Assembly: GCA_951828515.1 (NCBI GenBank)
Contig: OX639992.1
Coordinates: forward strand, 2,146,217-2,210,216
Length of the DNA: 64,000 nt
Source of the DNA: an uncultured Poribacteria bacterium
Lineage (GTDB): Bacteria; Poribacteria; WGA-4E; WGA-3G
Reading direction: 5' to 3'
Part shown: positions 10,833-44,822 of the stretch, piece after piece
Numbering within the stretch: the first letter of the stretch is position 1
How the letters are laid out: the number at the start of each line of letters is the position of its first letter
The notes under the pieces: generated by a model
What the model saw: only the letters and a program-made list of their open reading frames with translations
Databases searched by the model: none
Told to the model about the DNA's origin: nothing
Translations under genes and position numbers: made by a program

Positions 10833-11031
10833 TAAGTCTCCAGTAAGATGGCTGTCGGCTTTACGGCTTTCAGCGGTCAGAAGATTAGCGGTCAGGTCGG
10901 TTTTTTCTGCGAAAAAACCTTTCAGCAGTCAGGGAAGAGGTGTTTTTGATAGAGTGTTTCCCCACGTTTAAGTTCACTCTCTTTGCTGATTGCCAATTGC
11001 CATCTTGCTGATTACTGATCGTCGATAGCCA

Positions 11032-18177: not shown

Positions 18178-18349
18178 TACTTCAAAGTCCTTTTGCGTTA
18201 CTATTATTGTTTTGACGCAATGCTGACAGAATATATCACGCATTTTTAACTTTATTCTCTCCATAATACTATTCCTCTGCCCGAGAATTGTGCCCACACG
18301 AACGGCACATTTATAGTAAAGTCAACAATTAACTATACACCCACCGGAA

Positions 18350-18375
18350 GGCGAGGTTAGAAACCTCGCCAGCGG
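18350..18375. repeat. GGCGAGG-TTAGAAA-CCTCGCC-AGCGG hairpin element
   Basis: Family members at 2684, 5897, 15833, 21394 (expanded loop) and 60372, and a half copy at 15729. Confidence 0.75.
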
Positions 18376-18790
18376 CGGAACGGTGCTTGTGTTTCTAAAG
18401 TGTGCACTTATTTTTAGGATTTACTATAAATCGCATAGCGAAATCTAATTACATCCGCCATTTCGTGGATTATAATACGCAAATATGACTTTGCAGTTAC
18501 ATACTGCTTCCACCCGCTATGTTGACCCAAAAGCGGAAATGGAGTCGCGTTCTACCGCGATGTGTCTGGATTCGGAGCACACCTACGGGAAAACTATGGT
18601 GATTTGAGTGTGAATGCCGCTAAGGGCATTCACACTGGGAACCCAAACTAAAAGTTTATGCTACAAAGATGTCTATTTATTTCTATAATTCGCTATAAAT
18701 ACCCCTACGTTAAAAAAAAGAGAACGGGCAATGCCATCGCGGGCACCACCCGTTCATTGTTTCAAAGAATGTAATTGGAATATCCGTTGG

Positions 18791-21010
18791 TTAATCTCGT
18801 GAACGTTTCAATTCACCCCACTGCGTAGTCAGCTTACCTTTAGCGGAAACCAACCCTCTCAGGCGGACTGTCGCTAACGTCTGGCGTTCGCCCCCCAAAG
18901 ATACGTCCTCAATTTGATAGTAGTAGACGACATTCGGCTTCGCCGTGGTGTCTGTCCACGTATAGGTATTCCGTTCAGCGGTCGTGCCTGCTCCAGGAAT
19001 CAACTGGACGTTGATGACCTTGAATTCACCCGTCCTCGTTTGACTTCGCAATATATTGAATCCGGCGTTGTCCACCTCGGACTCGGTCGTCCAATTAATG
19101 GCAACCGTGCCAGTCTCCGTGAGGTCTGGACGGAATTGAGACAGTTGGACGGGAAGTGCCCCGCCTGCCCGGATACTGGGGCTTCCGTGGTCGGTTCTAC
19201 TACCGTACCAAGTTTCAATATTTTTCTGTGATAAGTAGAGGAATGAAGTTTCTGCTGCGCGGACCCACGCATCTCTCAGGGTCCCGTCAAGCGCGATGCC
19301 TTTGTTCGTGTATCTTCGGATCCGTGGGTTATACTCGCGATACTGGCGGATGATCGAGGTTCGGGCTCCATCTTCTGTCCATCCGTTCGGCAATTCCCAT
19401 GTGGGTCGATCGGCAGTCCGGACGCTGCCATCAAGGTTTCCAACTTCATCGACGAGGTTATTTCTCCCATCGACGAGTTTGATGTGGAACCCCTGGGTCG
19501 GATGTAAGAACGCATCTCGCGAGGTGCGCATCCCAAATTCAGCGGCGAGTGCCGGGTAAACCTTGAAGACACGGGTAGCTCCGAAAAGTTGTCCTTTCGC
19601 GTGAGTGGTCCCAGAGTTTCTTCCATCGGCTGAGACGATGAGCACCGACTGCTCTGGAGAGATCGTTTTCACGCGTCCACTATTCTTAAAATTAATTGTT
19701 CCGGACAGGGGTTCGTTGTTTGCGCGCGGATTGTCGTAGTTTTCAATGATTAGTTCCCATCCAGTATCAGCATCTAAGGCGACGGTTTCTGTTTTAGAAG
19801 TATTGGAGAGTTCAATCCACTGGATTTCATTCGCGCCCCCATCCGTAGCGAACATAATTTCGCTAATCGTCACTGTTCCTTGTCTTGGCGTAACGCCTGT
19901 TGGGGTACCGGTTGCAGCGACCCGAAAGGTGTGTGCGGGGGAAGGCGTTGCTGTGTTTTGGACCCCACCTGCGTCTGCGACTGCACCAGTGTTGACCTGC
20001 ACCGTCACAGTCGTAACCCCCGGATTGGGCGTGAGGATTGCGGAGTAGACGTTTGAACCGGGGATCGGGGTTGGTGAAGTGATTGTGCCGCCGGTGACGT
20101 TGATTTCGCTCGCCAGTAGCGTGGTGCCCGCTTGCAGCGGTTCGTTAAAGGCGATCGTCATAGGAAAGGGACCGCCGCCGAGAGAAGGCGCGCCAGCAAT
20201 CGTTGCGACGGGTCCGGTCGTATCTACAGTAAACGTGCCTTTTGGGAAGACATACGCGCCGTTACTTGCCGCTTCCACTGTTATCTCTGCTCTGCCTGGA
20301 AGAGGGACAATTGTTAACGTCCACACTCTTTTGGCAGCGTCAGGGACAATACTATCAAGATATCCGTTGGTGACCTTGAGATCTGCGGACCCCAGTGTAA
20401 TCGATTTTGTTGAGGTTAACGTCACCGTAAAGGGTGTGTCGCCACGAACAAGTTTATCAGGGGTCAACGTGAGCGGGGGTGCCGCACTCCGAATTATTTT
20501 GACTTCTAGTGGAGTAGCCGGAACACTTGGGGTCGCGGCAGTACCGTCTATTACATCCTGTGGGCTAAGAATAGTGTTAGCGGCCGCTGCTGGTATTCGT
20601 ATAATGACCCTATTGACACTACCTCCAGCGGTGATTGTTGTCGTGTACACGCCTGGAACGTCGGAATCAACAGGAGCCACAGCTGCCCCGCGTTGAACAA
20701 ACTGGTCATTTGGATCAAAAGCAAACAACTCAATATCAGTTTCATCAAACCCGGTTACTGGGGTATTCACAGGAGTAGCGGCATTGGGGTCATTTTGAAA
20801 CATGATGGTTAGTTCAAAAGAAACGGATTCAGCTCTGATGCCGTACACTTGGATGCCCAGCGTGTCTGATTCAGTGTCAACATTTGCCACCTCATCTGGG
20901 ACCGATAGGACTGGTGTTACAGCTTCGGTTGCAGGGGTCGCAACGAAAGCCAGTCCAACAACGAGTAGCACCGCAAAAACTAAGATAAATTTCAATTTAT
21001 TAAAGAACAT
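18791..21010 (-). CDS. Large secreted protein of unknown function with C-terminal GKLTTQWGELKR tail
   Basis: Signal peptide. T/V/P-rich beta-strand-like composition. SD GGAGG upstream. Confidence 0.45.
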   Translation of the reverse strand: MFFNKLKFILVFAVLLVVGLAFVATPATEAVTPVLSVPDEVANVDTESDTLGIQVYGIRAESVSFELTIMFQNDPNAATPVNTPVTGFDETDIELFAFDPNDQFVQRGAAVAPVDSDVPGVYTTTITAGGSVNRVIIRIPAAAANTILSPQDVIDGTAATPSVPATPLEVKIIRSAAPPLTLTPDKLVRGDTPFTVTLTSTKSITLGSADLKVTNGYLDSIVPDAAKRVWTLTIVPLPGRAEITVEAASNGAYVFPKGTFTVDTTGPVATIAGAPSLGGGPFPMTIAFNEPLQAGTTLLASEINVTGGTITSPTPIPGSNVYSAILTPNPGVTTVTVQVNTGAVADAGGVQNTATPSPAHTFRVAATGTPTGVTPRQGTVTISEIMFATDGGANEIQWIELSNTSKTETVALDADTGWELIIENYDNPRANNEPLSGTINFKNSGRVKTISPEQSVLIVSADGRNSGTTHAKGQLFGATRVFKVYPALAAEFGMRTSRDAFLHPTQGFHIKLVDGRNNLVDEVGNLDGSVRTADRPTWELPNGWTEDGARTSIIRQYREYNPRIRRYTNKGIALDGTLRDAWVRAAETSFLYLSQKNIETWYGSRTDHGSPSIRAGGALPVQLSQFRPDLTETGTVAINWTTESEVDNAGFNILRSQTRTGEFKVINVQLIPGAGTTAERNTYTWTDTTAKPNVVYYYQIEDVSLGGERQTLATVRLRGLVSAKGKLTTQWGELKRSRD

Positions 21011-28290: not shown

Positions 28291-28956
28291 TCATTTTTCG
28301 AGAAGCACCTTGATATCCCGCCGTAGACGCAAGAGTGCCGGTTTGCTTCGACTATCGTAATAGCCATAGATGTTTCCATCCGGCTCAACGAGAACAAACC
28401 GCGTGCTATGAAGGAGCTCCGTGCCGTTGTGCCCCGCAGCTAAACTGAATCCGTCCTCGGCTAACTGGTAGATAGCTGTCTTGTCCCCAGTAAGAAAGTG
28501 CCAACGTCTATCATCAGCCCCATAAGCCTTTGCGTAGCGCGAGAGGACGCTTGACGTATCCCGCTCCGGATCCACGGAGTAAGAGACAAAATAGACCGGA
28601 TCCGCAACAAATTCGGATTGAAGGCGTGCCATCTCCTGCGTCATTGCCGGACAAATCGTTGGACAATTGGTGAAGATGAAGTCAGCAACCCAAATTTTGC
28701 CCTTCATGTCGGACAGTGTTAACGGCTCTCCGTGCTGTGTTGTCAGGCTAAAGTCCGGGACGCTGACAGCGGCACTTTTAGACACCGGTACTTCCGATTT
28801 AGTGCCAAATACCGACCACAAATTGATACCGGCAATGCCGATGATGATAACACCCAGCACTACCCAGATTAGGGTACTTTTGTCAAGTTTTCGTTCTCGA
28901 AGTCGGGAATCGGAGTTCCCTCCTACACTCTCGGTTTGTGTGTCCATATTGAGCAC
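28291..28956 (-). CDS. SCO1/SenC copper chaperone for cytochrome oxidase assembly
   Basis: Thioredoxin-like CxxxC (FTNCPTICP), N-terminal TM anchor, family-typical length. Confidence 0.8.
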   Translation of the reverse strand: MLNMDTQTESVGGNSDSRLRERKLDKSTLIWVVLGVIIIGIAGINLWSVFGTKSEVPVSKSAAVSVPDFSLTTQHGEPLTLSDMKGKIWVADFIFTNCPTICPAMTQEMARLQSEFVADPVYFVSYSVDPERDTSSVLSRYAKAYGADDRRWHFLTGDKTAIYQLAEDGFSLAAGHNGTELLHSTRFVLVEPDGNIYGYYDSRSKPALLRLRRDIKVLLEK

Positions 28957-28967
28957 CCAACCAGCAG

Positions 28968-29312
28968 TTAGTGAGCGGACGTATCTACAACTTCTGTTGT
29001 CGGTTGCGTTGCGCCTTCGATTCGTGAGTCTAACGTTAGGTCAGGCATCAACGCAAAAACGAGCAGAACGCAGATAATGAAGGGGGTCATTACGATAATC
29101 GCCAACGTCCGCCTTTCAAATTTCAGATGCATGAAATAATTTGCAACTAAGATGGCCTTAGCACATGCCAGTCCGATGAGCAGGATGGCTTTGACTACCG
29201 TCGGGAAATCCGGTATGACGACCAAAAGCTCAAGGACGGTCAGCCCGGTAAGCCACCAGAAAATATTCATGTATTTCGGATGCTCTTTGTGCCCATTCTG
29301 TGCCATTTTCAT
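28968..29312 (-). CDS. Cytochrome c oxidase subunit IV (prokaryotic COX4-like small subunit)
   Basis: 114 aa with 3 TM helices, directly downstream of coxIII. Confidence 0.45.
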   Translation of the reverse strand: MKMAQNGHKEHPKYMNIFWWLTGLTVLELLVVIPDFPTVVKAILLIGLACAKAILVANYFMHLKFERRTLAIIVMTPFIICVLLVFALMPDLTLDSRIEGATQPTTEVVDTSAH

Positions 29313-29318
29313 GTCCTC

Positions 29319-29969
29319 CTATAGTAGATAAATGAAGGTGAAAACCATAATCCAGATAAGATCAACGAAGTGCCAATAGAGCCCGACGATTTCTACCTCA
29401 TGGTTAAATTCAGCCGTATATCTACCGCGTAAGCCGTGGATTAAAATAACAATGAGGTAAATAACACCACCGGTCACGTGCATCCCGTGGAAACCCGTGA
29501 TGGCGTAGAAAGTGGGACCAAAAAGCGTTGAGCCACTAACTGCAGCACCCGACAACCCGTGGTCGGGAATACCCGTAAGTGTCAACCCGTGGTGAATCAG
29601 ATGATACCATTCATAAGCCTGTAGCCCAAGAAAGATTATGCCTCCCCCGATCGTCAATCCAAGGAACATGCACATGCGTGAGACATTGCCGTTCTGAATC
29701 GACTCCAGTGCTTTCACCATCGTGACACTGCTGCATATCAACAGGAATGTCATAAACGCGGTTAGCTCAATGCCAAGAATCTCAGTTGGCGGAACCCAAC
29801 CGATTGCGCCTGCACCTGCTCGGATAGCGGCATAAGCTGCCAACAAGGCACCAAACGACATGGTGTCCCCGACAAGGAAAACCCACATACCGAGCTTACC
29901 AAGACTGTCCGGTGTCAGCGAAGGCTCATATACGTCTTCAGTATGATCTAAAGTGGTAGCGTGTTCCAC
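29319..29969 (-). CDS. coxC: Cytochrome c oxidase subunit III
   Basis: Five to seven TM helices and heme-copper subunit III-like motifs (HGLT, HVTGG, HFVD). Confidence 0.75.
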   Translation of the reverse strand: MEHATTLDHTEDVYEPSLTPDSLGKLGMWVFLVGDTMSFGALLAAYAAIRAGAGAIGWVPPTEILGIELTAFMTFLLICSSVTMVKALESIQNGNVSRMCMFLGLTIGGGIIFLGLQAYEWYHLIHHGLTLTGIPDHGLSGAAVSGSTLFGPTFYAITGFHGMHVTGGVIYLIVILIHGLRGRYTAEFNHEVEIVGLYWHFVDLIWIMVFTFIYLL

Positions 29970-30025
29970 TATATCTAACTCCTTTCCGTTTTAAGAGTTG
30001 TCAGCTGTCAGTACGGGTGCTATGC

Positions 30026-30115
30026 ACCCTTTCAGTTATCAGTTAAGAGGTTTTCGTTTAACAAAAGCCTCTTTTAACCGACTACCGATGACCGATAACC
30101 GATAACCATTCCAAT
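30026..30115. repeat. Hairpin repeat element (CAGTTATCAG ... AAGAGGTTTTCGTTTAACAAAAGCCTCTT ... CCGATAACCGATAACC). It lies in the same orientation as the copy at 31598-31690.
   Basis: Direct reading. Encodes the C-terminus of ORF 30039-30320. Confidence 0.7.
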
Positions 30116-30317
30116 TTAAGAAAATCGTGCCGCCGATGAGACCGAAAACCGTAAACGGCATCGCCATCAGAAAAAGGACACTCCAATTAAAACCTTTAGC
30201 GATCGGCTCATCAAGTTCTTTACAGCCTGGACATGCCTCAACGGACATCGGAACTATAAATATGACGAGTACCAAGATGGCAGCCCATACAGCATTTGTA
30301 TAAAACGATTTGCTCAT
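30039..30317 (-). CDS. Small membrane protein (2 TM, CPGC motif); C-terminal 20 aa encoded by a repeat element
   Basis: Hydrophobic helices. ATG at 30317. Confidence 0.35.
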   Translation of the reverse strand: MSKSFYTNAVWAAILVLVIFIVPMSVEACPGCKELDEPIAKGFNWSVLFLMAMPFTVFGLIGGTIFLNWNGYRLSVIGSRLKEAFVKRKPLN

Positions 30318-30346
30318 CAAAGTATTCGGGCAGGATACCCCTTGCT

Positions 30347-31372
30347 TTAGCTCGGGGAGGAATGCCCGCTCCTATAATTAAAGTTTAGTTTTGTTAGAAC
30401 TTTGAAGTCCATTCGTTTGGCACTTGTTGTGAGTCGTTTTCCATCTAAACTGTAGAGAGCAAACAATCCTTTGGCGTTGATCCCTGCTAATCTTGTGAAT
30501 CCGTATTTGATATGCTTAACAAGTGTGTTCTTTATCAACCCCTCACAGAGCACAGTGCCGCCATATTTTGAACGAACACCCCCCTTTTTGTATTGTTCTC
30601 TATGCAGACTACGTCTCGCTATAGGTATCGGTGATATACAGAATAGGTCTGTATTCTCCAAAATAGGCCCGCCAATTGTATAATAAGCAAGACACCAAGA
30701 ATCTACACAATGCGCCTCAAAAGCGTCAGAGAGTTTCTTTGACGACTTCCTGAGACCGAGGCGATCCCGTATCTCTTTCGTCTCCCACCCTTGAAGCGTT
30801 AGGAGTTCCCACCGCTTTTTGACTTCATCATAGAACCATTGCTTACCGACTTCCAAAGGACTAAATGACGTATTCCATTTCTTGGCACTCTTGAGAGTTC
30901 TTGCTTTGATGTCCTCAACGCATACATGCGTCACAGGGAACAGTTTTGACAGCCACTCAAGGATGCGAAGTTTCCAGTCCCAACGTGCGCGTGTGCCAGC
31001 AGGAATACGCGCTTTATTCAAAAGTCGGTTTGTTCGGTTCTTGCGATTCGGACACTTCCGTGAACGTCTACCTCTACGCAACTCACACCGCTTTTCAACT
31101 TTCTTTCCAACTTTACTATGGGCATCGGCTTGCACATTTAAGTAGGTATGTGCTTTGGATTTGACAGTAAAGCCTTCCTTTTTGCTGCCCGGATCAACAC
31201 CGACAGCGATTTCTTGTGTTTCCCGTGCTACAGGCTCTTTGTTGAGGCGGATACAATAGATACCATTATCAAAATAGGGAGTTGCCTGACCGCGCTTTAC
31301 AAGTTTCCTTGCCCGCGCAGCGTGCATAGGCATCAGTTGTTGTCCGTCTTTGGTCTTAACAGGCACAAACAT
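30347..31372 (-). CDS. isrB: IscB-family RNA-guided nuclease lacking an HNH domain (IsrB-like, OMEGA system)
   Basis: N-terminal PLMP/RRXRR domain (KDGQQLMPMHAARARKLVKRGQA...IYCIRL). RuvC-I IAVGVDPGSKKEGFTV. Arg-rich bridge helix RRGRRSRKCPNRKNRTNR. RuvC-II VCVEDIKA. RuvC-III EAHCVDSWCLAYY. No CxxC..H..N..H HNH motif. The 341-aa length matches IsrB. Confidence 0.6.
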   Translation of the reverse strand: MFVPVKTKDGQQLMPMHAARARKLVKRGQATPYFDNGIYCIRLNKEPVARETQEIAVGVDPGSKKEGFTVKSKAHTYLNVQADAHSKVGKKVEKRCELRRGRRSRKCPNRKNRTNRLLNKARIPAGTRARWDWKLRILEWLSKLFPVTHVCVEDIKARTLKSAKKWNTSFSPLEVGKQWFYDEVKKRWELLTLQGWETKEIRDRLGLRKSSKKLSDAFEAHCVDSWCLAYYTIGGPILENTDLFCISPIPIARRSLHREQYKKGGVRSKYGGTVLCEGLIKNTLVKHIKYGFTRLAGINAKGLFALYSLDGKRLTTSAKRMDFKVLTKLNFNYRSGHSSPS

Positions 31373-31690
31373 AAGTTTGTATTCTCCTTTTCAGGGTATA
31401 TGTTTCCCCATCCAGATCATAGTATCCAAGAAGAATCAGACTTGGGGAGCATCCGAAACGTTGTTCTAACTGCCACGTCAAGATACTACGATATATTACT
31501 GTAGTCAACCGTTTAACTTGTGGAGTGGACGTTTGGCGGACGCTTCGCACAGGTCCCCCGAATTTATTCGGGGGTTATTGACTTAACACTTCCTTTTTAT
31601 AGGTGTCAGTGGTCAGTTTTCAGTTAAAGAGGACTCTGGTTCAACGGATCTGCCTTTTAACCGACTCCTGATAACCGATAACCAACAACC
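31373..31690 (-). ncRNA. Candidate omegaRNA region of the IsrB element
   Basis: A 318-bp non-coding stretch immediately 5' of isrB on the same strand. Contains a strong hairpin CCCCCGAATTTATTCGGGGG (31554-31573) and a repeat-element hairpin at the distal end. Placement is by analogy to known IsrB loci. Confidence 0.35.
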
Positions 31691-31691
31691 A

Positions 31692-32270
31692 TTAAAAGAG
31701 ATACACCAACACATAGAGAATTGGCCAGAGGGCGACAACAAAAATCCAGTAGATAGTACAAGTATCAATGCCGACGTAACCTTCGGCTGAGAAACGACCC
31801 GCCATCGCCATCCCAAAAACTATAAATAGCCAGATAACAGCACTCAGCACGTGAACGGCATGGCATCCGATGAGTACATAAAAGATACCACCATAGACAC
31901 CAGATTGGAGGGTAAGCCCATTGCGAATCAACTGTATCCATTCGCTTCCCTGTACGCCGAGGAAGAGTAAGCCAAGTCCTCCTGTAAGCAACAACCAATT
32001 GCGGAGTTGCTTCAGTTGGTCCTTCTGAATTGCGCGGCGTGCTTGAAACATCGTGTAGCCGCTCAATAGGAGAAGCACAGTGTTGATGCCGGTTACCGCG
32101 CGTGGCAGTTCAATCCCGATATGCGATGGTGGGGGCCAGGTGACATTTCCCACTCGAAAGACGAGAAATGTACCGATGAGCCCTGAAAACAGCATCGTCT
32201 CTGCACCCAGCAGGACTAATATTCCCAATCGTGCGTTGCTCAAGGGTGAACGTTGGTGCATTTCTGCCAT
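31692..32270 (-). CDS. Second cytochrome c oxidase subunit III-like protein
   Basis: Five TM helices and subunit III-like His pattern (HAVHVLS). Confidence 0.65.
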   Translation of the reverse strand: MAEMHQRSPLSNARLGILVLLGAETMLFSGLIGTFLVFRVGNVTWPPPSHIGIELPRAVTGINTVLLLLSGYTMFQARRAIQKDQLKQLRNWLLLTGGLGLLFLGVQGSEWIQLIRNGLTLQSGVYGGIFYVLIGCHAVHVLSAVIWLFIVFGMAMAGRFSAEGYVGIDTCTIYWIFVVALWPILYVLVYLF

Positions 32271-32529: not shown

Positions 32530-33456
32530 CTAAATTTTATCCAACGCCATTGTGACAAATACCAACGGCAGATAGAGCAGCGAAGCATATAGCAGATAGC
32601 GTGCGGCTTTCACTGAACGTGTGCGTGCTAAATAGATACCGACTGCCAGAAACGCCACGCCTGATAGTAGTGCTGTGAAGAAATAGACTGTCCCGGCAAT
32701 GTTATACAACGTCGGTAACAAGCCTATTCCGAGGAGCGCGACGCAATTAACCACAATCTGGCGGCACGTGCTTGTCCCATCCGGATGAATGACCGGCAAC
32801 AAACGGAATCCTGCTTTTGCGTAGTCTTCGCGATAGATGTAGGCAATTGCGAGAGAATGCGGGATCTGCCACAAAAAGAGTATCGTAAACAGCACCCATG
32901 CCTCGCCTGTTAGCGAACCTCGTGCGGCAACCCATCCAACGACAGGTGGGAGCGCGCCGGGTACAGCACCAATAAGCGTACACAGTGAGGTTTTCCGCTT
33001 GAGTGGTGTATAGAGAAAGAGATAACTCACGACTATCAGCGAAATGACAAAACCGCTCAGCATATTGACGACGAATGTCAGGTAAAGCATCCCACTGCCT
33101 GTAAGGACAGCACCGACAAGAAGTGCGGTCAGAGGGCTCATTCTCCCGCCAGGGAGCGGTCTCTCCTGCGTCCGTTTCATCTGAGCGTCTACATCGCGCT
33201 CAAGGTATTGGTTGAGCCCTAAGACACCAGCAGCGGTCAATCCAGCACCAAAGAGAGTATGTAGACCTCGGAGCCAATCTACAGTCTGTTGTGCGCCGAG
33301 ATAGAAGCCGGCAGCAGTCGTAATGAGTATCATCACCACCAATCTCGGCTTGACGAGTTCGATAAAGTCTGCGACACTTGGCGCGAAAACGTCTTGCTTC
33401 GATGGTTGCTTCGCCGTATCTGTATTATCTGGCAATGTTACCGTTGTTGAACGCAT
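32530..33456 (-). CDS. ctaB: Protoheme IX farnesyltransferase (heme O synthase)
   Basis: UbiA prenyltransferase fold with 8-9 TM helices and D/N-rich motifs. Confidence 0.85.
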   Translation of the reverse strand: MRSTTVTLPDNTDTAKQPSKQDVFAPSVADFIELVKPRLVVMILITTAAGFYLGAQQTVDWLRGLHTLFGAGLTAAGVLGLNQYLERDVDAQMKRTQERPLPGGRMSPLTALLVGAVLTGSGMLYLTFVVNMLSGFVISLIVVSYLFLYTPLKRKTSLCTLIGAVPGALPPVVGWVAARGSLTGEAWVLFTILFLWQIPHSLAIAYIYREDYAKAGFRLLPVIHPDGTSTCRQIVVNCVALLGIGLLPTLYNIAGTVYFFTALLSGVAFLAVGIYLARTRSVKAARYLLYASLLYLPLVFVTMALDKI

Positions 33457-33650: not shown

Positions 33651-34775
33651 TTATTCTGTGGCGAGCGCATCCGTCGCGGGTGCTCTGACAACTACCGATG
33701 CATCAGTGAACCGGTAGATTTTCAGGGTAAGCACAAAACTGCTCACCAACATAAGCGCACCGACTGCGACATGCGCAGTCGTGATTGTGACCGTGAGTGC
33801 GGTTGCAAATGTTTCTCCGAAGGCGGTAAGTTTCGCGAAAAACGCCCCAGTGCCGAGCATCAACTGAATAGCAAGCAAACCCAGCAATAACATAGGTATC
33901 GATTGCCCAATTCTCTGGGCGTCACTATTCATACTAAGAACACGTCTCGCCAATAAAAAGATATGCAACGCGACCAGAAAAGCAAAGAGCAGATGTGCGT
34001 CAAGTCTGCTTCCGGTATGCCGCAAAATCGCGCCAAAGATGAGTTGCACATAAATAAGGCACGTCGTAATCAGGCTTAACCGGCGTAACTTCTGTGCTTT
34101 AAGATGGCTTTCGGCTCTCGGCTCTCGGCTTTCAGCAAGAGGGTTTTTGTTAAACGAAAACCTCTTTACCGACTGCTGATTGCTGATTGCTGATTGCCTG
34201 TCTGGTTCGCTTTTTGGCGCAGCTTGCAAGCCAAAACTTGCTGTACGAAAGTCCTGCCACCAATCGCGAGAGGTGAACCAAGCAATTCCACAAAGCAGGG
34301 CAAAAAACGCTTGTGCGAGACATGCATGTACGATCGCGAAGTTGAGATTAATCTGTGTAACCCGAAGTCCACCGAGAACGCCTTGCACAATGACAGCGAC
34401 CAAGGCAACAAATCCAAGCCATTTTAACCATTTGCGTGAATCTCTCACCAAAAGGAAAACCAAGAGACCGACTGTCAAAAGTCCAACAAGGGAGCCCATG
34501 AGCCGATGACTATGTTCGTATAGGATGCCTCCTACCATTTCCGAGAGTGGATAGAGAAACATATTATACCCAAAGGTCGTCGGCCAATCAGGCACTGCTA
34601 ATCCCGATTCTGTACTTGTGACAATCCCACCGATGACAATCAACAAGAAAGTCGCGACTGCGGTAGCGCGTGCTATTCTATGTAGCCATAGGCTATAATT
34701 GGGTGGAAGATTGGAAGATTGGAAGATTGGGTATCCACCCTTCCTCTCTTCCCTCCTTCCAGTCTTCTCTTCCAT
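33651..34775 (-). CDS. ctaA: Heme A synthase (CtaA/COX15, type 2 lacking the loop cysteines) with a repeat-encoded ~60-aa insertion in the central loop
   Basis: Eight TM helices, HRLMG and HIFLLARR His motifs, VPDWP loop. The central loop (ISNQQSVKRFSFNKNPLAESREPRAES) is encoded by the hairpin repeat element at 34090-34200. Confidence 0.65.
   Translation of the reverse strand: MEEKTGRREERKGGYPIFQSSNLPPNYSLWLHRIARATAVATFLLIVIGGIVTSTESGLAVPDWPTTFGYNMFLYPLSEMVGGILYEHSHRLMGSLVGLLTVGLLVFLLVRDSRKWLKWLGFVALVAVIVQGVLGGLRVTQINLNFAIVHACLAQAFFALLCGIAWFTSRDWWQDFRTASFGLQAAPKSEPDRQSAISNQQSVKRFSFNKNPLAESREPRAESHLKAQKLRRLSLITTCLIYVQLIFGAILRHTGSRLDAHLLFAFLVALHIFLLARRVLSMNSDAQRIGQSIPMLLLGLLAIQLMLGTGAFFAKLTAFGETFATALTVTITTAHVAVGALMLVSSFVLTLKIYRFTDASVVVRAPATDALATE
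34090..34200. repeat. Hairpin repeat element (GCTTTCGGCTCTCGGCTCTCGGC ... GGTTTTTGTTAAACGAAAACCTCTTT ... CTGATTGCTGATTGCTGATTGC) embedded in-frame in ctaA
   Basis: Same family as 30026-30115, 31598-31690 and 38150-38245. Confidence 0.65.
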
Positions 34776-38146: not shown

Positions 38147-38149
38147 TAG

Positions 38150-38245
38150 CAGTCAGCAGTCAGCAGTCAGCAATCAGTAAAGAGGTGTTCGGAGTTGAAG
38201 ATACCTCTTTCAAGTGATGGCTGATAGCCGATAGTCATTCCTCTA
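38150..38245. repeat. Hairpin repeat element (CAGTCAGCAGTCAGCAGTCAGCAATCAG ... GGCTGATAGCCGATAG)
   Basis: Direct reading; intergenic. Confidence 0.65.
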
Positions 38246-39181
38246 TACGAATGGATTACCCGTCAATTTTATAAACACATCCTCCAGTGTCGGTTTCCCA
38301 AATCGAACCGATTGAATCTCATCTGGAAAGGTGGCAACTAAATCCCGGACGAACTCATGTCCCCGTTCACATTCAACACGGATCAGATTGTCAGCCAGCA
38401 CCGGTGAAACGCCAAACCTCTTCGTAATTTCGGTGCAGAAGACTTCGTTGTCTATGCACTCTATGAGGATGACATCGCCACTGACTTCCGCCTTGAGTTC
38501 ATTAGGCTCTCCAAGGGCGACCAATTTGCCTGCGTCCAGAATACCGACTCTATTGCACGCCTCGGCATCATCCAGTAGGTGCGTCGTGAGGAAGACGAGG
38601 ATATTTTCTGTATCCGCGAGTGCGCCAAGATAGTCATTGAGTTGTCGGCGTGCCGCCACATCCAACCCACTTGTCGGTTCGTCAAGGAGTAGAAGACGGG
38701 GAGAATGCAGCATGGCTTTCGCGATTTCAACCCGTCTTTGTAAACCACCGGATAAGAGTTCCACACGTTCCTTCGCCCTATCCAAGACGCCAAAACGTTC
38801 GAGGAGTTCCGAAATTCGATCGCGTAGGGTTTTGCCAGCAAGTCCATAGAGGTGTCCATGGTGCCGCAAATTCTCAAAAACGGTAAGTTTGCCATCCAGC
38901 CCTGGGTGTTGGAAAACAACTCCCAAGAGCTTCCGAACTGCCTTCACCTCGGTGGTTAAGTCGTGTCCGAGGACACGAACGGTACCGGACGTGACCGGCA
39001 TCAGCGTGGACAGGATTCTAAAAAGAGTCGTTTTTCCACTCCCGTTCGGTCCGAGGAGCCCAAAAACCTCACCGCATGAGACGCTAAAACTGACATTGTC
39101 AAGTGCGCGCCGTGTTTGATATACATGCGAAAGATTTTTTACCTCAATTTGGTCGTCGGTGTATTGGAAACCATCAGCCAT
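38243..39181 (-). CDS. ABC transporter ATP-binding protein with C-terminal extension
   Basis: GPNGSGKTT, LSGGLQRR and LLLDEPTSGLD motifs. Start trimmed to MADGFQ because the upstream sequence is a repeat element. Confidence 0.75.
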   Translation of the reverse strand: MADGFQYTDDQIEVKNLSHVYQTRRALDNVSFSVSCGEVFGLLGPNGSGKTTLFRILSTLMPVTSGTVRVLGHDLTTEVKAVRKLLGVVFQHPGLDGKLTVFENLRHHGHLYGLAGKTLRDRISELLERFGVLDRAKERVELLSGGLQRRVEIAKAMLHSPRLLLLDEPTSGLDVAARRQLNDYLGALADTENILVFLTTHLLDDAEACNRVGILDAGKLVALGEPNELKAEVSGDVILIECIDNEVFCTEITKRFGVSPVLADNLIRVECERGHEFVRDLVATFPDEIQSVRFGKPTLEDVFIKLTGNPFV

Positions 39182-39227
39182 CGGCTTTCGGCTATCAGCA
39201 AAGAAATCCTGTTGCATTCAAAGATCG

Positions 39228-39290
39228 CGAGTACAACTCGCTCCTAATAAACATCGCGAGTACAACTCGCTCCTACAGCGGAGGTTTACG
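39228..39290. repeat. Direct duplication of ATCGCGAGTACAACTCGCTCCTA (hairpin GCGAGT-ACA-ACTCGC); a related copy lies at 54345-54380
   Basis: Direct reading. Confidence 0.75.
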
Positions 39291-39379
39291 GAACTTATGC
39301 CACCTAAACCGGCATTTCAAGGTTGACAGAACACTACCACAAAATCCCCGACTGATAGCCGACTGCTAACTGCCGACTG

Positions 39380-40162: not shown

Positions 40163-40169
40163 TTTTTCT

Positions 40170-40395
40170 CCTTTTTAATAGTTATCAGTTATCGGTTTTA
40201 ACCATCAACTCGTGCTTTAACATTTATAACAGAGGCGAGTTGATGGTTAAAGTTTTCAGTTAAAGCACTTTTTGATTCATCTACTGAACGTTGATAGCTG
40301 AAGGTTCATTATTAATTATCAGTTATTGGTTATCAGTTTTCAGTTAAAATCCCTTTTGATGCGTCTCAGGTATCTCTTGAACTGAAGACCAACAA
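40170..40395. repeat. Large hairpin-rich repeat element between gene 40401-42110 (stop) and the cupredoxin gene (start)
   Basis: GTTATCAGTTATCGGTTTTAACCATCAACTCG..CGAGTTGATGGTTAAAG and CAGTTATTGGTTATCAGTTTTCAGTTAAAATCCCTTTTGA. Confidence 0.6.
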
Positions 40396-40400
40396 TTTTC

Positions 40401-42112: not shown

Positions 42113-42889
42113 TTAGTGTGCCTCCCCAAAGGTTCGGAACTGATAACCGGTGTAGTCAGATAGGAAGAGGATTACGTCCCAAATTTCGTCTTCTGTCAAG
42201 TGGTTTTCCCAGATAGGCATCGCTGAATCCCAAGGTGTGCCAGCTGCAGGTAACCCCGGTCCGCCTTTGGCTATTCGCCAAAAAAAGAAACCTTCTTGGA
42301 AGTTCGGGATAATCCCTGGATCTTGGAAATTAGCGGGTAGCGGTTGGAGGTGAGACGCAAAGTGTCCCTGCCCATCAAGGTGATCCCCATGGCAGTAAAA
42401 GCAGTTGTTATAATAAACACGCCTGCCGTTCTCAACATGCGCTTTGAACGCATCTGGATCGTCCTTTTCATAATGCCGGAAAGGGTTCACGACATCTTGC
42501 ATCGTGCCAATAACCTCATCTTTGTAGGTTAATTCAAGCGGAGGCGATGGATGAGCATCACGTGGACTCCCCGGTGGATTCGCGCGCTGGGCGATAATCG
42601 AATAGGTATAACCGAGCAGGAACAACGGGATTAACACCGCGACAACACGGCGGCGGACACGGCGATTGTTATCGGTGAGGGTTTCATGAATAGGGCGCAG
42701 AAATTCGCGAAATAGTGAATCCTCAACGGAGATATGCACCAAGATAGCAATTATAATCAACCCCATATACATCGCAATCACGCTGCCTGGTATCGGTACT
42801 GAGACGATACCGCCAACGGCAAACCGTAGTACAGCCCAAGAACCAATCAGAATTATGAGACATATTGTGAAGAGTGACAGTCTTTTCAT
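42113..42889 (-). CDS. Membrane-anchored mono-heme cytochrome c
   Basis: Three N-terminal TM helices. CFYCHGDHL. Confidence 0.65.
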   Translation of the reverse strand: MKRLSLFTICLIILIGSWAVLRFAVGGIVSVPIPGSVIAMYMGLIIIAILVHISVEDSLFREFLRPIHETLTDNNRRVRRRVVAVLIPLFLLGYTYSIIAQRANPPGSPRDAHPSPPLELTYKDEVIGTMQDVVNPFRHYEKDDPDAFKAHVENGRRVYYNNCFYCHGDHLDGQGHFASHLQPLPANFQDPGIIPNFQEGFFFWRIAKGGPGLPAAGTPWDSAMPIWENHLTEDEIWDVILFLSDYTGYQFRTFGEAH

Positions 42890-42890
42890 C

Positions 42891-43334
42891 TTTTAATATT
42901 ACCTTGCGGTTCGGTTAGGCAGGTTTCATGAATAAAGTGCCTTTACGTATATCCGTCCTCCATTACATTACGGACTATGGCTTAGAGGGTTATCGGTTGT
43001 CAGGCACCGGTTTTTTATTCCGCCGGAATTGCCTCCGCTTTTAATATTACCTTGCGGTTCGGTTAGGCAGGTTTCATGAATAAAGTGCCTTTACGTATAT
43101 CCGTCCTCCATTACATTACGGACTATGGTTTAGAGGGTTATCGGTTGTCAGGCACCGGTTTTTTATTCCGCCGGAATTGCCTCCGCTTTTAATATTACCT
43201 TGCGGTTCGGTTAGGCAGGTTTCATGAATAAAGTGCCTTTACGTATATCCGTCCTCCATTACATTACGGACTATGGTTTAGAGGGTTATCGGTTGTCAGG
43301 CACCGGTTTTTTATTCCGCCGGAATTGCCTCCGC
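42891..43334. repeat. Three tandem copies of a 148-bp unit, each containing the leader-family head TTTTAATATTACCTTGCGG and core ATATCCGTCCTCCATTACATTACGGACTATGG
   Basis: Unit starts at 42891, 43039 and 43187. The last copy overlaps the 3' end of the upstream cytochrome gene. Confidence 0.85.
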
Positions 43335-44822
43335 TGCCCCTTCAGAAACTGCTTCCGCTGTTGCCCCCGTAAGCGTGCTTAAGAAAGAGAGCAAATTGCT
43401 CATATCCGACACTGATAACAGTAGCGGGAAGTTTTCGGGCATCGGCGATGTAACGAATAATTTTTTGCCAGAGGCACGGGTAAAGGTGGCTTCCTCAAGA
43501 TCAAAAAAGGGATCAAATACCTCTTCACTCCCATCAACCATTAAGACAATCTCGTCGTCCATCGTGCCTGAAACGTAGTCGCCAACAATTTCATCGCCAT
43601 CAAAAGTGAGAACAGTCATCTGGCTTTTTACATCTGTCTTAGAAAATGTCCGATCTTCGCCGCCGACTTTTAGCGTTACAGTGTCTTCGGTTTCGGAAAC
43701 AATTTCACCGCTCACCGGAGCATCCGCATCCGCAGGCGTTAGCGTCAATGTGAAATAACCCCTCACTTGTAGATTCGTGAGATCCTCAATCGGCTCGTCA
43801 TCAAGTTCGCTCAATAAGAGGGTATGCTCCTCTTCCACGCCATCTGCCGTTTTGGTTCGGACGACAATCTGTTCTGTATCCTGCGAGACAAGCGTTCCCT
43901 GCAAGGTCGTTCCATTGGCACGGACGGTAACGGCACCATAACCGCTTACAATCTGCGCACTCGGTTTCAGGACCGATTCCTCAAGATACCGCATATCGTT
44001 AAAAGCAGCAATTTCAGAGAGGTCTGGTGCAGTGACGACTTCAAAATCTGTACTCGCCTCACCCGTAGCTGGACTTTCTATACCTATCACAGCGTGGCAC
44101 GAGATACACGCCGCAGTCACAAACACCTTTTTGCCGAGTTCTGGATCACCCGTAAGCACGGGTGGGAGTGCCGCTGCCATTGTCCCTGCATCTGCCCGAT
44201 CTATCGGTTCATTAAAGGGTGTCGGATCGATTTCCCCCCCTTGGCTCTGCAGATAGGCAATAACGGCTTCAATTTCCAGTTTTGAGAGAGCAATGGGAGC
44301 CTTCCAAATTTCTGGCATAATCTTGCCGTATCCGGGCACAAGATACTTAGCCGGCTCGTAGAGCGATTCGATGAGATAGGTTTTCGCGTCCGTGCCGGGT
44401 ACGCGACTTGCGGCGTTAATGCCAATGTCCGTGAGATCAGGACATCTCCCTTTCGGTGCAGAGGTATCGACGGTATGGCACGCGCTACACTGCCCTTTTC
44501 CGTTAAACACCAAGGCTCCCTGCTCAGCGACAGCGTCTGGATCGCTCCAATCCAGCTCAGTCAGATTCACCGCTGTGGAACTTTCTGGGACAAGCCCCGC
44601 GACAAAGGCGTAAAACCATATCACGGCAAGCGAAAACGTCAACAACTTCATGACGTTCGACCACAAAACGATATTTACGATTACCGAGATGAGAAACCAG
44701 ACCGACCACGGTAGCAAGTTCTCCGAAGCAATCGGAAACGCGGACGCCCCTGCAATATAGGCGATGAAACTTACCACCATTAAGATGAGACTCGCAATTT
44801 TAATGAGCGTATTTCTTGACAT
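43311..44822 (-). CDS. Membrane-anchored di-heme cytochrome c
   Basis: Three N-terminal TM helices. CSACH and CISCH. Confidence 0.65.
   Translation of the reverse strand: MSRNTLIKIASLILMVVSFIAYIAGASAFPIASENLLPWSVWFLISVIVNIVLWSNVMKLLTFSLAVIWFYAFVAGLVPESSTAVNLTELDWSDPDAVAEQGALVFNGKGQCSACHTVDTSAPKGRCPDLTDIGINAASRVPGTDAKTYLIESLYEPAKYLVPGYGKIMPEIWKAPIALSKLEIEAVIAYLQSQGGEIDPTPFNEPIDRADAGTMAAALPPVLTGDPELGKKVFVTAACISCHAVIGIESPATGEASTDFEVVTAPDLSEIAAFNDMRYLEESVLKPSAQIVSGYGAVTVRANGTTLQGTLVSQDTEQIVVRTKTADGVEEEHTLLLSELDDEPIEDLTNLQVRGYFTLTLTPADADAPVSGEIVSETEDTVTLKVGGEDRTFSKTDVKSQMTVLTFDGDEIVGDYVSGTMDDEIVLMVDGSEEVFDPFFDLEEATFTRASGKKLFVTSPMPENFPLLLSVSDMSNLLSFLSTLTGATAEAVSEGAAEAIPAE

Follow-up and report, generated by a model that had tools for sequence, protein, structure and literature searches.

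An insertion sequence (IS) encoding IsrB lies at positions 30318–31582 (− strand) of a 64-kb stretch of Candidatus Poribacteria DNA (64,000 nucleotides; hereafter the window), with a short hairpin-forming repeat near each of its sides, and the locus raises the question of what these repeats are and whether they and the IS have anything to do with one another. The original prediction held that they belong to a dispersed and abundant family with arms of the CAGTCAG or CTGATAACC type. This is borne out by a motif-chain scan of the window, which found 15 arrays in which three or more TC(A/G)G or C(T/C)GA motifs follow one another every 7 nt, where only about 0.2 are expected (mean 0.21 and maximum 2 in 100 dinucleotide-preserving shuffles of the window), and an autocorrelation scan gave 10 regions of period 7 compared to 0–3 for periods 5, 6, and 8–11. 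The arrays are found at 9573, 13326/13402, 30078, 31606/31661, 34111/34169, 38153, 39174/39352, 40319, 52529/52640, and 54317, and 11 of the 37 intergenic gaps of at least 60 nt in the window contain them. All of the predicted loci were recovered, although the one at 10840–10930 has only weaker two-unit runs, and the array at 54317 is an addition to them. The copies at 30026–30115 and 31598–31690 have the sequences ascribed to them and are in direct orientation, with a common 40-nt block (CTTTTAACCGACT..GATAACC) of 88% identity. They are near isrB, as had been noted, but an ORF of 93 aa separates the IsrB unit from the first of them, and so the IS is not directly framed by the two copies.

The typical order of features at these sites is a stop codon, a TC(A/G)Gnnn array, a variable core, an nnnC(T/C)GA array, a Shine-Dalgarno sequence, and a start codon, where the second array is complementary to the first and the core is often a hairpin itself. 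In operons the first array usually begins 0–10 nt past the upstream stop codon and the second ends just ahead of the Shine-Dalgarno sequence or start codon. Total element length ranges from 85 to 240 nt, the arms are made of variable numbers of 7-nt units, and the cores come from several unrelated families. These include core A (AAGAGG..TTTGTTAAACGAAAACCTCTT), located at 30046–30075 and 34136–34168 and present at no fewer than five non-orthologous sites with differing arms, the GTGGCAGACA-type core at 9565–9648, and the longer composite cores at 39169–39379 and 52522–52665.

The elements of the window, designated E1 to E11, differ considerably in how this plan is realized. E1 (9565–9648) lies between two beta-lactamase-family paralogs and contains a TCAG array, a GTGGCAGACA-type core, and a short ACTGAAAGCCGA array. 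E2 (10846–11031), also between beta-lactamase-family paralogs, is a composite in which small hairpins are nested and each end has a degenerate array, and it occupies the entire gap at 10833–11031. In E3 (13318–13432, − strand), which is intergenic between divergent genes, a four-unit TCAG array and a CTGA/CCGA array surround a core of ∼50 nt (−38.2 kcal/mol on the − strand and −23.5 on the + strand). E4 (30000–30107, − strand) is the first of the two copies near isrB. Read on the − strand, it has the 5′ array GGTTATC GGTTATC GGTCATC GGTAGTC GG at 30076–30107, the core A hairpin at 30046–30075, the 3′ array AACTGAT AACTGA at 30031–30045, a small GGGTGC..GCACCC hairpin, and distal CTGACAG CTGACAA units at 30000–30014, with a fold of −25.7 kcal/mol on the − strand compared to −17.6 on the + strand. 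The second copy is E5 (31603–31690, − strand), where the 5′ array GGTTGTT GGTTATC GGTTATC AGGAGTC GG begins 2 nt past the TAA stop codon (31692–31694) of a COX3-like gene and is followed by a core and the 3′ array AACTGAA AACTGAC CACTGAC (−29.3 kcal/mol, z −2.8).

E6 (34098–34200, + strand) is a 93-nt in-frame insertion in ctaA with core A and arms of GGCTCTC and GCTGATT units, and it folds better on the + strand, antisense to ctaA (−42.6 vs. −31.9 kcal/mol). E7 (38147–38242, − strand) occupies the entire gap between the genes for an ABC ATPase and an ABC-2 permease, and its 3′ array (GCTGATT GCTGACT x3 on the − strand) stops at an ATG without a Shine-Dalgarno sequence; it folds at −29.7 kcal/mol on both strands, with z values of −5.8 and −3.8. 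A 27-nt hairpin, CGCAAGCC-N7-GGCTTGC, is inside the heptamer array of E7 in genome L003 and is absent in the window. In E8 (39169–39379, − strand) heptamer arms surround a long composite core in which ATCGCGAGTACAACTCGCTCC occurs twice, the − strand 3′ array extends over the start of an ABC ATPase ORF, and the fold is −80.9 kcal/mol on the − strand and −59.1 on the + strand. E9 (40163–40400, − strand) fills an entire intergenic gap with two adjacent array units of the TTATCAG/TTATCGG type, each with its own core, and the last array on the − strand is followed by AAGGAG and ATG. E10 (52522–52665, + strand), between genes for cytochrome b (petB-like) and a petD-like protein, has near-perfect 17-bp arms and a long core (−63.5 kcal/mol on the + strand and −53.6 on the − strand), while E11 (54312–54345) is a four-unit TCAG array, for which no clear partner array was found, and then one copy of the small repeat ATCGCGAGCACAACTCGCTCC.

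The capacity to form hairpins that had been predicted is evident in every copy tested, as the six elements that were folded with shuffle controls gave −25.7 to −63.5 kcal/mol with z values of −2.8 to −6.8 on the better strand (the other strand being as weak as z −0.8), but the single common hairpin core that was also envisaged gives way to several unrelated core families. The other copies, folded without shuffle controls, gave −17 to −81 kcal/mol. In E3, E4, E5, and E8 it is the sense strand that folds better, with G-U pairs between TCGG and CTGA, whereas in E6, E10, and the GTGGCAGACA-core group it is the antisense strand that does so. The G-U polarity (a 5′ arm with TCGG facing a 3′ arm with CTGA) was rejected as a mark of the transcribed strand, as it fails for the latter elements, and 97 paired elements from the wider survey described below are split 25 to 33. 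Most base pairs are invariant in alignments of 23 E4 orthologs, 7 E5 orthologs, and 21 GTGGCAGACA-core orthologs, and RNAalifold found no convincing compensatory pairs in them, with 0–4 double changes per alignment, all of which are marginal. Hence we do not claim that the RNA structure is proven. Intrinsic terminators were discarded on direct reading of the sequence, as the hairpins are not followed by T-runs, and Rfam gave no matches at gathering score in the window, including the repeats, the one sub-threshold match close to the two copies being the omega-RNA of IsrB described below.

How general the family is can be seen from 1.03 Mb of sequence from 52 other Poribacteria genomes (about 1.1 Mb of Poribacteria sequence in all), which is mostly syntenic, so that orthologous sites inflate the counts that follow. 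Arrays of period 7 numbered 168 compared to 0–23 for other periods, making them at least seven-fold more common. Chains of three or more units numbered 75 and 83 at 7-nt spacing and 0–6 at other spacings, and six scrambled control motifs at 7-nt spacing gave 0–12 chains. About 73% of the period-7 arrays are in the ∼10% of the DNA that does not code. By a crude ORF call, 141 of 198 arrays are in the ∼10% of the sequence that is intergenic and about a quarter are in ORFs. On the sense strand the 5′ array starts at a median of 6 nt past the stop codon and the 3′ array ends at a median of 22 nt ahead of the next start, and there are 97 paired elements in the 1.03 Mb with complementary arrays 7–170 nt apart. 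The arrays are 3–6 units long. Among the 703 units in arrays of at least three, TAACTGA (16%) and TAACCGA (12%) are the most common, followed by CAACTGA, AAACTGA, and TTACTGA. The core of the unit, C(T/C)GA with the preceding purine, is strict, and three positions vary. Stop codons are present in at least two frames in 162 of the 198 3′ arrays, and 137 of the 198 5′ (reverse) arrays have none in any frame.

The commonest unit is identical to one that is already known. Direct repeats of the heptamer TAACTGA occur in Beggiatoaceae, Cyanobacteria, and Bacteroidetes, where forward repeats are located just upstream of start codons and reverse repeats within ORFs read LSVISYQ, and the 170 sets of the Beggiatoa genome comprise 169 direct ones and a single inverted one (MacGregor, 2015, Front Microbiol 6:1397, PMC4679880). 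Poribacteria were not among the hosts reported in that study. The likeness extends to the number of units per array (3–6 here and 2–6 there), to the mainly intergenic location of tandem copies with forward arrays upstream of starts, sometimes at an ATG without a Shine-Dalgarno sequence, to the tolerance in ORFs of the reverse, stop-free orientation as LSVI-type peptides, and to the interruption of arrays by related units. The distance to the start codon, in contrast, is usually longer in Poribacteria, with a Shine-Dalgarno sequence between, compared to the 1 nt typical of Beggiatoa, and TAACCGA is rarely repeated in Beggiatoa but is the second most common unit here. Moreover, the known repeats are direct and have no secondary structure of their own, whereas the rule in Poribacteria is a complementary upstream array (often of the G-variant TCGGTTA) that makes a long hairpin together with the core. 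As the arrays are paired and fold into hairpins, we regard them as a variant rather than a plain member of the TAACTGA-type repeats, and both the host phylum and the architecture are new for what is otherwise a known kind of repeat. Cyanobacteria reportedly have heptamer repeats termed STRRs, and small dispersed repeats are said to be embedded in their heptamer arrays. The Poribacteria elements are similar to these in being intergenic tandem heptamers with small hairpin modules within the arrays that recur at unrelated sites, but the phylum, unit sequences, and cores all differ and no association with HIP1 is evident in Poribacteria.

We propose, with moderate confidence, that the TAACTGA-type heptamer-repeat hairpins are a resident, Poribacteria-wide intercistronic family that is transcribed and punctuates operons, and that is unrelated to the IsrB IS. 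The anatomy of the elements, their enrichment, their position relative to genes, their age and conservation, the match of their heptamer to the published one, and their independence from IsrB are shown by the analysis, and transcription, RNA folding in vivo, and every functional effect are what we infer. Each element would be transcribed within a polycistronic mRNA, where it would fold as a long imperfect hairpin and punctuate the operon, and the hairpin may protect the upstream segment from 3′ exonucleases or offer a processing site. The 3′ array would stop stray ribosomes, because it usually has TGA or TAA in two or three frames, and the hairpin might also gate the AU-rich ribosome-loading region of the gene that follows, as its base would be melted by a ribosome that terminates immediately before it. 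In E4 and E5 the Shine-Dalgarno sequence is outside the hairpin, so the elements cannot in general act by sequestering the ribosome-binding site directly. The mode of action might resemble that of the REP/BIME elements of E. coli. REPs are extragenic, transcribed imperfect palindromes between operon genes near stop codons. They reportedly stabilize upstream mRNA, and where one is no more than ∼15 nt from a stop codon, the translation of the preceding gene is reportedly affected. While the Poribacteria elements are analogous to REP/BIME elements and REPINs in operation, membership of the REP/REPIN family is not supported, as REPs have no tandem 7-nt unit structure and the elements are not short (20–40 nt) palindromes of fixed length with a conserved 5′ head tetranucleotide of the GT(A/G)G type. 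The elements may have originated as selfish DNA, by slippage of heptamers, the spread of small cores, and now and then an insertion or recombination event, and they would now be mostly fixed with at least some of them under constraint.

The first of the other possible explanations is that the arrays are RNA or DNA platforms to which a protein binds with each of its monomers reading about 7 nt, for instance a cold-shock-domain protein, ribosomal protein S1, or some dedicated factor, and that the hairpin is secondary. This was the proposal for Beggiatoaceae (MacGregor, 2015, PMC4679880), and it is consistent with the strict C(T/C)GA and preceding purine next to three variable positions and with 3′ arrays that end at or just before starts, as in E7 with its ATG but no Shine-Dalgarno sequence. 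A study in Nostoc, in which deletion of heptamers upstream of recO altered the response of the promoter to LexA and NtcA in E. coli reporter assays, also points in this direction. The complementary pairing of the arrays in Poribacteria is left unexplained, however, as is the occurrence on the sense strand of many 3′ arrays with CCGA in place of CTGA, and no candidate protein came out of our analysis. We think this explanation unlikely.

A second explanation, and one that we consider still more doubtful, is that the repeats are neutral simple-sequence DNA without function, in which heptamers arise by slippage and accumulate wherever they are tolerated, either in intergenic regions or in ORFs where they can be read through. 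Polymerase slippage as the origin of heptanucleotide repeats was proposed by Mrazek (2007), as summarized in PMC4679880, and heptamers are the most common class of long simple-sequence repeat in many bacteria (PMC4679880). Stop codons in the forward orientation would by themselves account for the exclusion of arrays from ORFs, the number of units at one site does differ between species, and the lack of covariation is as a neutral model would have it. On the other hand, the 97 complementary pairs around a core in 1.03 Mb are far above what independent slippage would give, unit number is invariant in three strains, and TAACTGA is dominant in at least four phyla when the present units are taken together with those of PMC4679880. 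Conservation also argues against neutrality. Most of the 52 genomes have the element that lies at the 3′ end of the 93-aa ORF, and its arms and core are 80–86% identical in pairs of genomes in which the four-fold degenerate sites of ctaB are only 47–55% identical, and a second element, which has the GTGGCAGACA core and is fully intergenic, is conserved in 21–22 genomes. The elements are old and stable, and at two sites they are more conserved than the silent sites of the neighboring gene. Three strains of ∼99% identity have identical arrays and no differences in copy number, by which a hypervariable contingency locus was rejected. An indel screen of 16 genome pairs of 90–96% identity found no gain or loss of whole elements, compared to many indels in other repeat families, which makes an active MITE unlikely. 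The changes that did turn up were the ctaA insertion and an allelic replacement carrying E5.

Elements enter ORFs, as had been proposed, and they do so at two places, the tail of ORF 30039–30320 and the in-frame 93-nt insertion in ctaA. The first ORF (30039–30317, − strand, 92/93 aa) encodes a membrane protein with a CPGC motif that is conserved across Poribacteria. Its native C-terminus is ..HYRRANRKPTDQETI before the stop in 13 genomes, and in the window this is replaced by the element-encoded tail GYRLSVIGSRLKEAFVKRKPLN, in which the TCGGTTA array is read as YRLSVIG. E4 supplies the last ∼22 codons of this ORF, close to the ∼20 initially estimated, together with its TGA stop, and the IS now lies between the ORF and its Shine-Dalgarno sequence. 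The entropy per column in E4 is 0.38, 0.23, and 0.59 at codon positions 1, 2, and 3, which is a coding-like pattern, and the conservation of E4 may be partly at the protein level, with its 5′ array and core being translated as the ORF tail. E6 is an insertion in a variable loop of ctaA and is translated from the − strand, in its stop-free orientation, as ..RQSAISNQQSVKRFSFNKNPLAESREPRAES.. The insertion is present in the window and in genomes L003 and L056, L001 and L002 are identical over this stretch, and L007, L008, and L009 have an empty site. Inverted arms are present, and this one clean insertion shows no unambiguous target-site duplication and lies where the sequence already resembled a unit (GCAATCG). 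The palindromic elements of Rickettsia (RPE) are reportedly found as in-frame, translated insertions in protein-coding genes. The loop of ctaA and the tail of the 93-aa ORF are comparable to this, but the RPE are unrelated in sequence and host, and insertion into ORFs is the exception in Poribacteria, where intergenic placement is the rule. Elements give rise to spurious ORF extensions and in-frame insertions at the tail of the 93-aa ORF, the loop of ctaA, and the N-terminus of the ABC ATPase, and Poribacteria gene calls and protein-family alignments will inherit such artifacts.

As for the IS itself, isrB (31372–30347, − strand) encodes an RRXRR domain (PF14239, 1.8e-29), and upstream of it is an omega-RNA scaffold (31582–31379, − strand) with a full-length but weak, sub-threshold match to HEARO (RF02033; 23 bits, E 0.03), with the guide presumably at about 31602–31583. 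It is similar to the IscB/IsrB elements of Meers et al. (2023) in that it is non-autonomous, has the upstream omega-RNA, makes no target duplication, and lies beside a TTCAT-type TAM, and it is oriented as the upstream gene is. Its ends were defined from the window copy together with five places with related copies, L081–L085, representing four distinct insertion sites (L084 and L085 are the same over the stretches compared), and as a metagenome scan gave only four close IsrB copies, the sample of target sites is small. One end reads GTCAATAACCCC..GGGG.. and the other ..CCTGCCCGAA, after which come some variable bases (NNN) and TTG, giving GAATACTTTG in the window and L081. All of the copies adjoin ATGA, reading on the opposite strand as TTCAT in L081–L083 and the empty sites, ATCAT in L084/L085, and CTCAT in the window, where this TAM-like motif (30313–30317, + strand) overlaps the ATG of the 93-aa ORF. 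The target in the window is the start-codon context of that ORF, ∼24 nt beyond the element, and an IscB element of Geobacillus has been reported to use TTCAT as its TAM (Meers et al., 2023, bioRxiv 10.1101/2023.03.14.532601).

The proposed connection of the repeats to IsrB, IS200/IS605, and REPs is not supported. The closest IsrB-free genomes, L056 and L003, have both flanking elements at the same positions, with E5 unchanged in sequence and an empty site of GGAAGTGTTAA|ATGAAC, which means that the elements are older than the IS and are not part of it. There are no heptamers in either end of the IS and no IS-end sequence in the elements, so that the repeats share neither ends nor a TAM with the IS and are not its PATEs, and no heptamer array is found within 1.5–2 kb of the other five IsrB places (four distinct sites). 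That IsrB lies close to the repeats is coincidental, a product of how crowded the intergenic space is and of a TTCAT-type TAM, without any mechanistic link, the IS having targeted such a motif adjoining one element. What might still favor REP/REPIN- or PATE-like non-autonomous elements, moved by an IS200/IS605-type Y1 transposase (RAYT/TnpA) and associated with IsrB through common machinery or target sites, is that the repeats are hairpin-forming, extragenic, and dispersed, with core A placed among differing arms and at least one clean insertion in ctaA. Poribacteria have, in addition, a great many IsrB elements (3072 homologs at E ≤ 1e-30, of which the best 120 are 75–88% identical), and from the biology of the family (Meers et al., 2023) these genomes must have some active Y1 transposase. 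A Pfam search found no Y1 transposase or RAYT domain (PF01797) among the 36 ORFs of the window or, from existing annotation, among the Pfam-annotated genes of the near-identical contig L001. With this, with the age of both flanking elements, with a target that is TTCAT-like and not a heptamer, with far less polymorphism between close genomes than in other repeat families, and with arrays of variable numbers of 7-nt units being, to our knowledge, a feature of neither REPs nor PATEs, mobilization by such a transposase is very unlikely.

Heptamers of exactly this sequence have been an unexplained oddity of three unrelated bacterial groups since 2015, and TAACTGA is now the dominant intergenic repeat of an uncultured phylum of sponge symbionts. 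To the known repeat are added a regular hairpin architecture, a stop-to-start placement, and conservation beyond silent-site saturation, which together provide the first comparative evidence that the arrays are maintained rather than neutral, and dozens of orthologous sites are now on hand for designing transcript-end mapping or reporter tests. It is tempting to speculate, as a long shot, that TAACTGA arrays and their anti-arrays might be a cross-phylum, post-transcriptional code of operon punctuation, read by a conserved RNA-binding factor or by the ribosome, with the anti-array as a switch that terminating ribosomes would open, and carried by phages between Beggiatoaceae, Cyanobacteria, Bacteroidetes, and Poribacteria. 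Exact (TAACTGA)3 is found in 107 stretches of IMG/VR viral contigs, some of them with the same inverted architecture.

The hairpin elements of the window belong to a Poribacteria-wide, hairpin-forming variant of the TAACTGA heptamer class, and we propose a selfish origin for them, with transcribed intercistronic punctuation as their most likely role; we hold this reading as a whole with moderate confidence, and our confidence in its descriptive part is far higher. The dispersed repeats of the original prediction have the sequences described and contain arrays at every locus listed, though as weaker two-unit runs at 10840–10930, a motif-chain scan adds a further array at 54317, and the two copies around isrB do share a block, which is 40 nt long and 88% identical. 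They are best described as tandem heptamers, with nnnTC(A/G)G units in one arm and C(T/C)GAnnn units in the other, hereafter the reverse and forward arrays, separated by a core. An autocorrelation scan of the window gave 10 period-7 regions versus 0–3 for neighbouring periods, and there are 15 chains of at least three motifs at 7-nt spacing, whereas 100 dinucleotide-preserving shuffles gave 0.21 on average and never more than 2. Measured against shuffle controls, the better strand of each of six elements has a hairpin z-score between −2.8 and −6.8, and the remaining elements fold at −17 to −81 kcal/mol, values calculated without such controls. No convincing compensatory changes were seen in three ortholog alignments, and G-U asymmetry was dropped as a mark of the sense strand, on which it was not consistently found. 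No single core unites the copies. One of them, core A (AAGAGG..TTTGTTAAACGAAAACCTCTT), is common to 30046–30075 and 34136–34168 and also occurs at five or more non-orthologous sites in other Poribacteria, with different arms every time, while copies lacking it have unrelated or composite cores. We infer that the elements are transcribed, fold in vivo and affect expression. A small repeat, ATCGCGAG(T/C)ACAACTCGCTCCTA, forming a hairpin with a 6-bp stem, was noticed at 39220–39275 and 54343–54365, with two copies within the core of the element at 39169–39379 (− strand) and one beside the array at 54317.

The window comes from Candidatus Poribacteria, a sponge symbiont, and the family was surveyed in 78 genomes, each sampled over 20 kb around ctaB; 52 of them are Poribacteria (1.03 Mb). 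These 52 contain 168 period-7 arrays versus 0–23 for periods 5, 6, and 8–10, and the two motifs form 75 and 83 chains at 7-nt spacing, compared with 0–6 at other spacings and 0–12 for six scrambled control motifs at 7 nt. The unit consensus is [T/C][A/T][A/G]C[T/C]GA, and with both strands pooled TAACTGA is the top unit (16%), followed by TAACCGA (12%). The TAACTGA-type family is absent from the non-Poribacteria ctaB loci among the 78 genomes. Some of those loci hold heptamer hairpins of other units. Arrays of different heptamers (AGACAGA/TCTGTTC, AATTTCG, CTTTTGA, and GTTGTCG) occur in other phyla at 12777–12887 of the Planctomycetia locus L061, 7968–8198 of the Methylomirabilota locus L051, in loci L052/L053, and at 13287 of locus L079; some of these other-phylum arrays are inverted and hairpin-forming, and hairpins with heptamer arms may be widespread in bacteria, each lineage using units of its own. 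Exact (TAACTGA)3 was also found in 107 viral-contig stretches of IMG/VR, far above chance by a rough 21-mer estimate, in arrays of up to 25 units, some with a reverse array, core, and forward array (loci L111–L190; e.g., L117 6127–6247, L144 3245–3323, and L147). TAACTGA could have reached its several phyla by way of phages.

In the Poribacteria loci 141 of 198 arrays are intergenic, although ∼90% of the sequence is coding (by a crude ORF call). Read on the sense strand, the median distance from the upstream stop codon to the start of the TC(A/G)G array is 6 nt, and that from the end of the C(T/C)GA array to the next start is 22 nt. Within the window, where nearly all genes are on the − strand, arrays occupy 11 of the 37 intergenic gaps of at least 60 nt, and several gaps are made up entirely of heptamer elements. 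The latter include 38147–38242, where the array reaches the ATG and there is no Shine-Dalgarno sequence, 39218–39379, 40163–40400, 52477–52665 between the cytochrome b and petD-like genes, and 9552–9650 and 10833–11031 between beta-lactamase-family paralogs. Stops abound in forward arrays (162 of 198 in at least two frames, 82 of them in all three), whereas reverse arrays are open, with 137 of 198 stop-free in every frame, as follows when TGA or TAA sits in a unit whose length three does not divide.

Elements enter two reading frames of the cytochrome oxidase operon on the − strand, which runs from ctaA (34775..33651) and ctaB (33456..32530) through an 80-aa ORF and a COX3-like gene (32270..31692) to the IsrB unit, the 93-aa ORF (30320/30317..30039), COX3, COX4, and SCO1. 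One of the two frames, the 93-aa ORF, is a genuine gene that every Poribacteria locus examined has conserved. Its native C-terminus (..HYRRANRKPTDQETI*) is kept in 13 genomes, with an element or nothing past the stop (L008, one of the comparison loci, has no element at this end), and in the window and most of the remaining genomes the end is replaced by the reverse array and core and reads GYRLSVIGSRLK.. up to the TGA of the first forward unit. A repeat copy was indeed predicted to supply the end of ORF 30039–30320, and this element-encoded tail proves to be shared by most of the genomes outside those 13. The second case is ctaA, which has a 93-nt in-frame insertion with core A in a variable loop. 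This insertion is confined to the window, the two contigs near-identical to it, L003, and L056; it lies in the sole orientation whose arms lack stop codons. Loci L007, L008, and L009 have the empty site, which is itself unit-like (GCAATCG), and no clear target duplication is visible at the insertion. Adjoining it at 34214–34245 is a ∼40-nt element, TTTTGGCG(C/T)AGCTTGCAAGCCAAAACTTGCT(G/A)TAC, translated in ctaA as ..FGLQAAPKS.. and missing from ctaA of several other species; the ctaA loop is therefore one of nested in-frame repeat insertions. In L026, L032, L035, L036, and L040, the 93-aa ORF has the same ∼40-nt element in its N-terminus, where it reads ..FWRSLQAKTCYTK.. in translation.

That the hairpins around isrB mark a REP-like insertion site, linking them to an IS200/IS605-type element, is not supported by the comparison of loci. 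The isrB gene matches PF14239 and, at this locus, is confined to the window and the two contigs near-identical to it, with 52 of 52 other Poribacteria loci lacking it. When the window is aligned with L056 and L003, the empty site is clean (− strand, GGAAGTGTTAA|ATGAAC), and in these IsrB-free loci both flanking hairpins are already present with nearly unchanged sequence. The ends of the insertion sequence were set from five other places, L081 (88% protein identity) and L082–L085 (74%; L084 and L085 are identical across the stretches shown). The related copies start with GTCAATAACCCC and end with ..CCTGCCCGAA, a few variable bases and TTG, followed by ATGA, and because these ends are conserved the element extends over 30318–31582; a full-length but weak HEARO match (31379–31582) terminates precisely at this boundary. 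As the opposite-strand flank, the window has CTCAT, L084/L085 have ATCAT, and L081–L083, like the empty sites, have TTCAT, which is the TAM reported for a Geobacillus IscB element (Meers et al.). The target of the insertion was thus the sequence around the start codon of the 93-aa ORF, ∼24 nt downstream of the hairpin element at 31603–31690. The insertion parted the ORF from its Shine-Dalgarno sequence, and hence the ORF may now depend on read-through from isrB. No heptamer arrays lie within 1.5–2 kb of the related IsrB places (L081–L085, a small sample), and neither the 36 window ORFs scanned against Pfam nor the annotated genes of L001, one of the near-identical contigs, yielded a Y1 transposase domain. 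The repeat observation stands, and is extended, without support for its proposed tie to IsrB. The IsrB family itself is hugely expanded in Poribacteria-type assemblies, with 3072 homologs in a protein search (E ≤ 1e-30); the best 120 have 75–88% identity, and several share the same 6-Mb contigs.

The elements are stable over the distances compared. The two contigs of ENA assembly ERZ18545484 (L001 and L002) are ∼99% identical to the window, whose ctaB product is 99% identical to that of OZ243935 (L056) and 98% to that of OZ246979 (L003). The arrays show no differences among three strains of ∼99% identity, and in 16 genome pairs of 90–96% identity, whose alignments show many indels in other repeat families, no element was seen to have been gained or lost as a whole. 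In the element that closes the 93-aa ORF, arm and core identity is 0.80–0.86 where four-fold degenerate sites of ctaB are at 0.47–0.55, and its untranslated forward array is at 0.73–0.79. Part of this conservation may reflect protein-level selection on the translated tail, a suspicion raised by per-column entropies of 0.38, 0.23, and 0.59 at the three codon positions. Another element, with a GTGGCAGACA core, lies wholly between genes and can be recognised in 21–22 genomes. The element after the COX3-like gene is patchy (L005, L022, L031, L041, L003, L056, and the window at 31575–31694). It is present in L005 and absent from L004 and L006, relatives 94–96% identical, and is always accompanied by the 93-aa ORF N-terminus MNKSFYTNAVWAS, instead of MHKLFFWAS or MYRFF..., so that the two look like an allele spread between lineages by recombination. 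Separately, ∼150 of the 209 variant columns between the window and the two ENA contigs fall in 28500–30000, in SCO1, COX4, and COX3, and end abruptly at the element at 30000–30107, which looks like a recombination tract bounded by that element. L002 also carries an N6/N4 DNA methyltransferase gene (17899–18888) not present in L001, a strain-level difference in a restriction-modification gene.

The closest described repeats are the TAACTGA heptamers of marine Beggiatoaceae, Cyanobacteria, and Bacteroidetes (MacGregor, 2015; PMC4679880), which are mainly intergenic, lie in forward orientation close to the start codon that follows, in many cases with no Shine-Dalgarno sequence, are tolerated inside ORFs in the reverse orientation as LSVISYQ, and have been proposed to act in translation through binding by S1, Csp, or CsrA. 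The Poribacteria elements resemble them in unit, array length, placement, and behaviour in ORFs, but are regularly paired with a complementary array and core, whereas only 1 of 170 sets is inverted in the Beggiatoa genome (PMC4679880). In the literature searched, such repeats were not reported from Poribacteria. While the kind of repeat is already known, the host phylum, the architecture, and the evidence of constraint are new, and they make the old heptamer puzzle more tractable. Small dispersed repeats embedded in cyanobacterial heptamer arrays were reportedly described by Elhai (2008), and these, together with the cyanobacterial STRR repeats, would be the nearest architectural parallel. Consistent with this parallel, the L003 counterpart of the array at 38147–38242 (− strand) contains a 27-nt hairpin (CGCAAGCCGCGTGTGGGCTTGCAGGAC, L003 5195–5221) that the window lacks near 38150–38165; this hairpin and a similar 28-nt GCAAGCC..GGCTTG insert in ctaA of L005 (at 9682) resemble the very small mobile repeats of cyanobacterial arrays. 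Of the defining features compared, those of REP-RAYT and PATE families were not found in the elements, and those of MITEs were seen in part, with inverted arms but no clear target duplication at the ctaA insertion. E. coli REP/BIME would be the closest analogy in function.

A second repeat family of the window, ∼100–340 nt and unrelated to the heptamers, lies at 5087, 14703, 22006, 27725, 33455, 48293, 48428, 62975, and 63735, and as three copies of a 148-nt unit at 42888–43335. On the gene-sense strand it ends in ..CCGCAAGG(A/T)AAAATTAAAA right ahead of start codons. It shows many presence/absence differences among close genomes (upstream of AAGGAAAATTAAAAAAATG, L056, L010, and the window have a copy and L003 does not) and seems much more mobile than the heptamer family. 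Finally, a 38-nt tandem repeat (..GGACGGCAGAACGGAGTCTGCCTACTACTTTATTTCGT..) at 3802–4089, with ∼6 copies of 96–100% identity and no spacers, overlaps a short predicted ORF.
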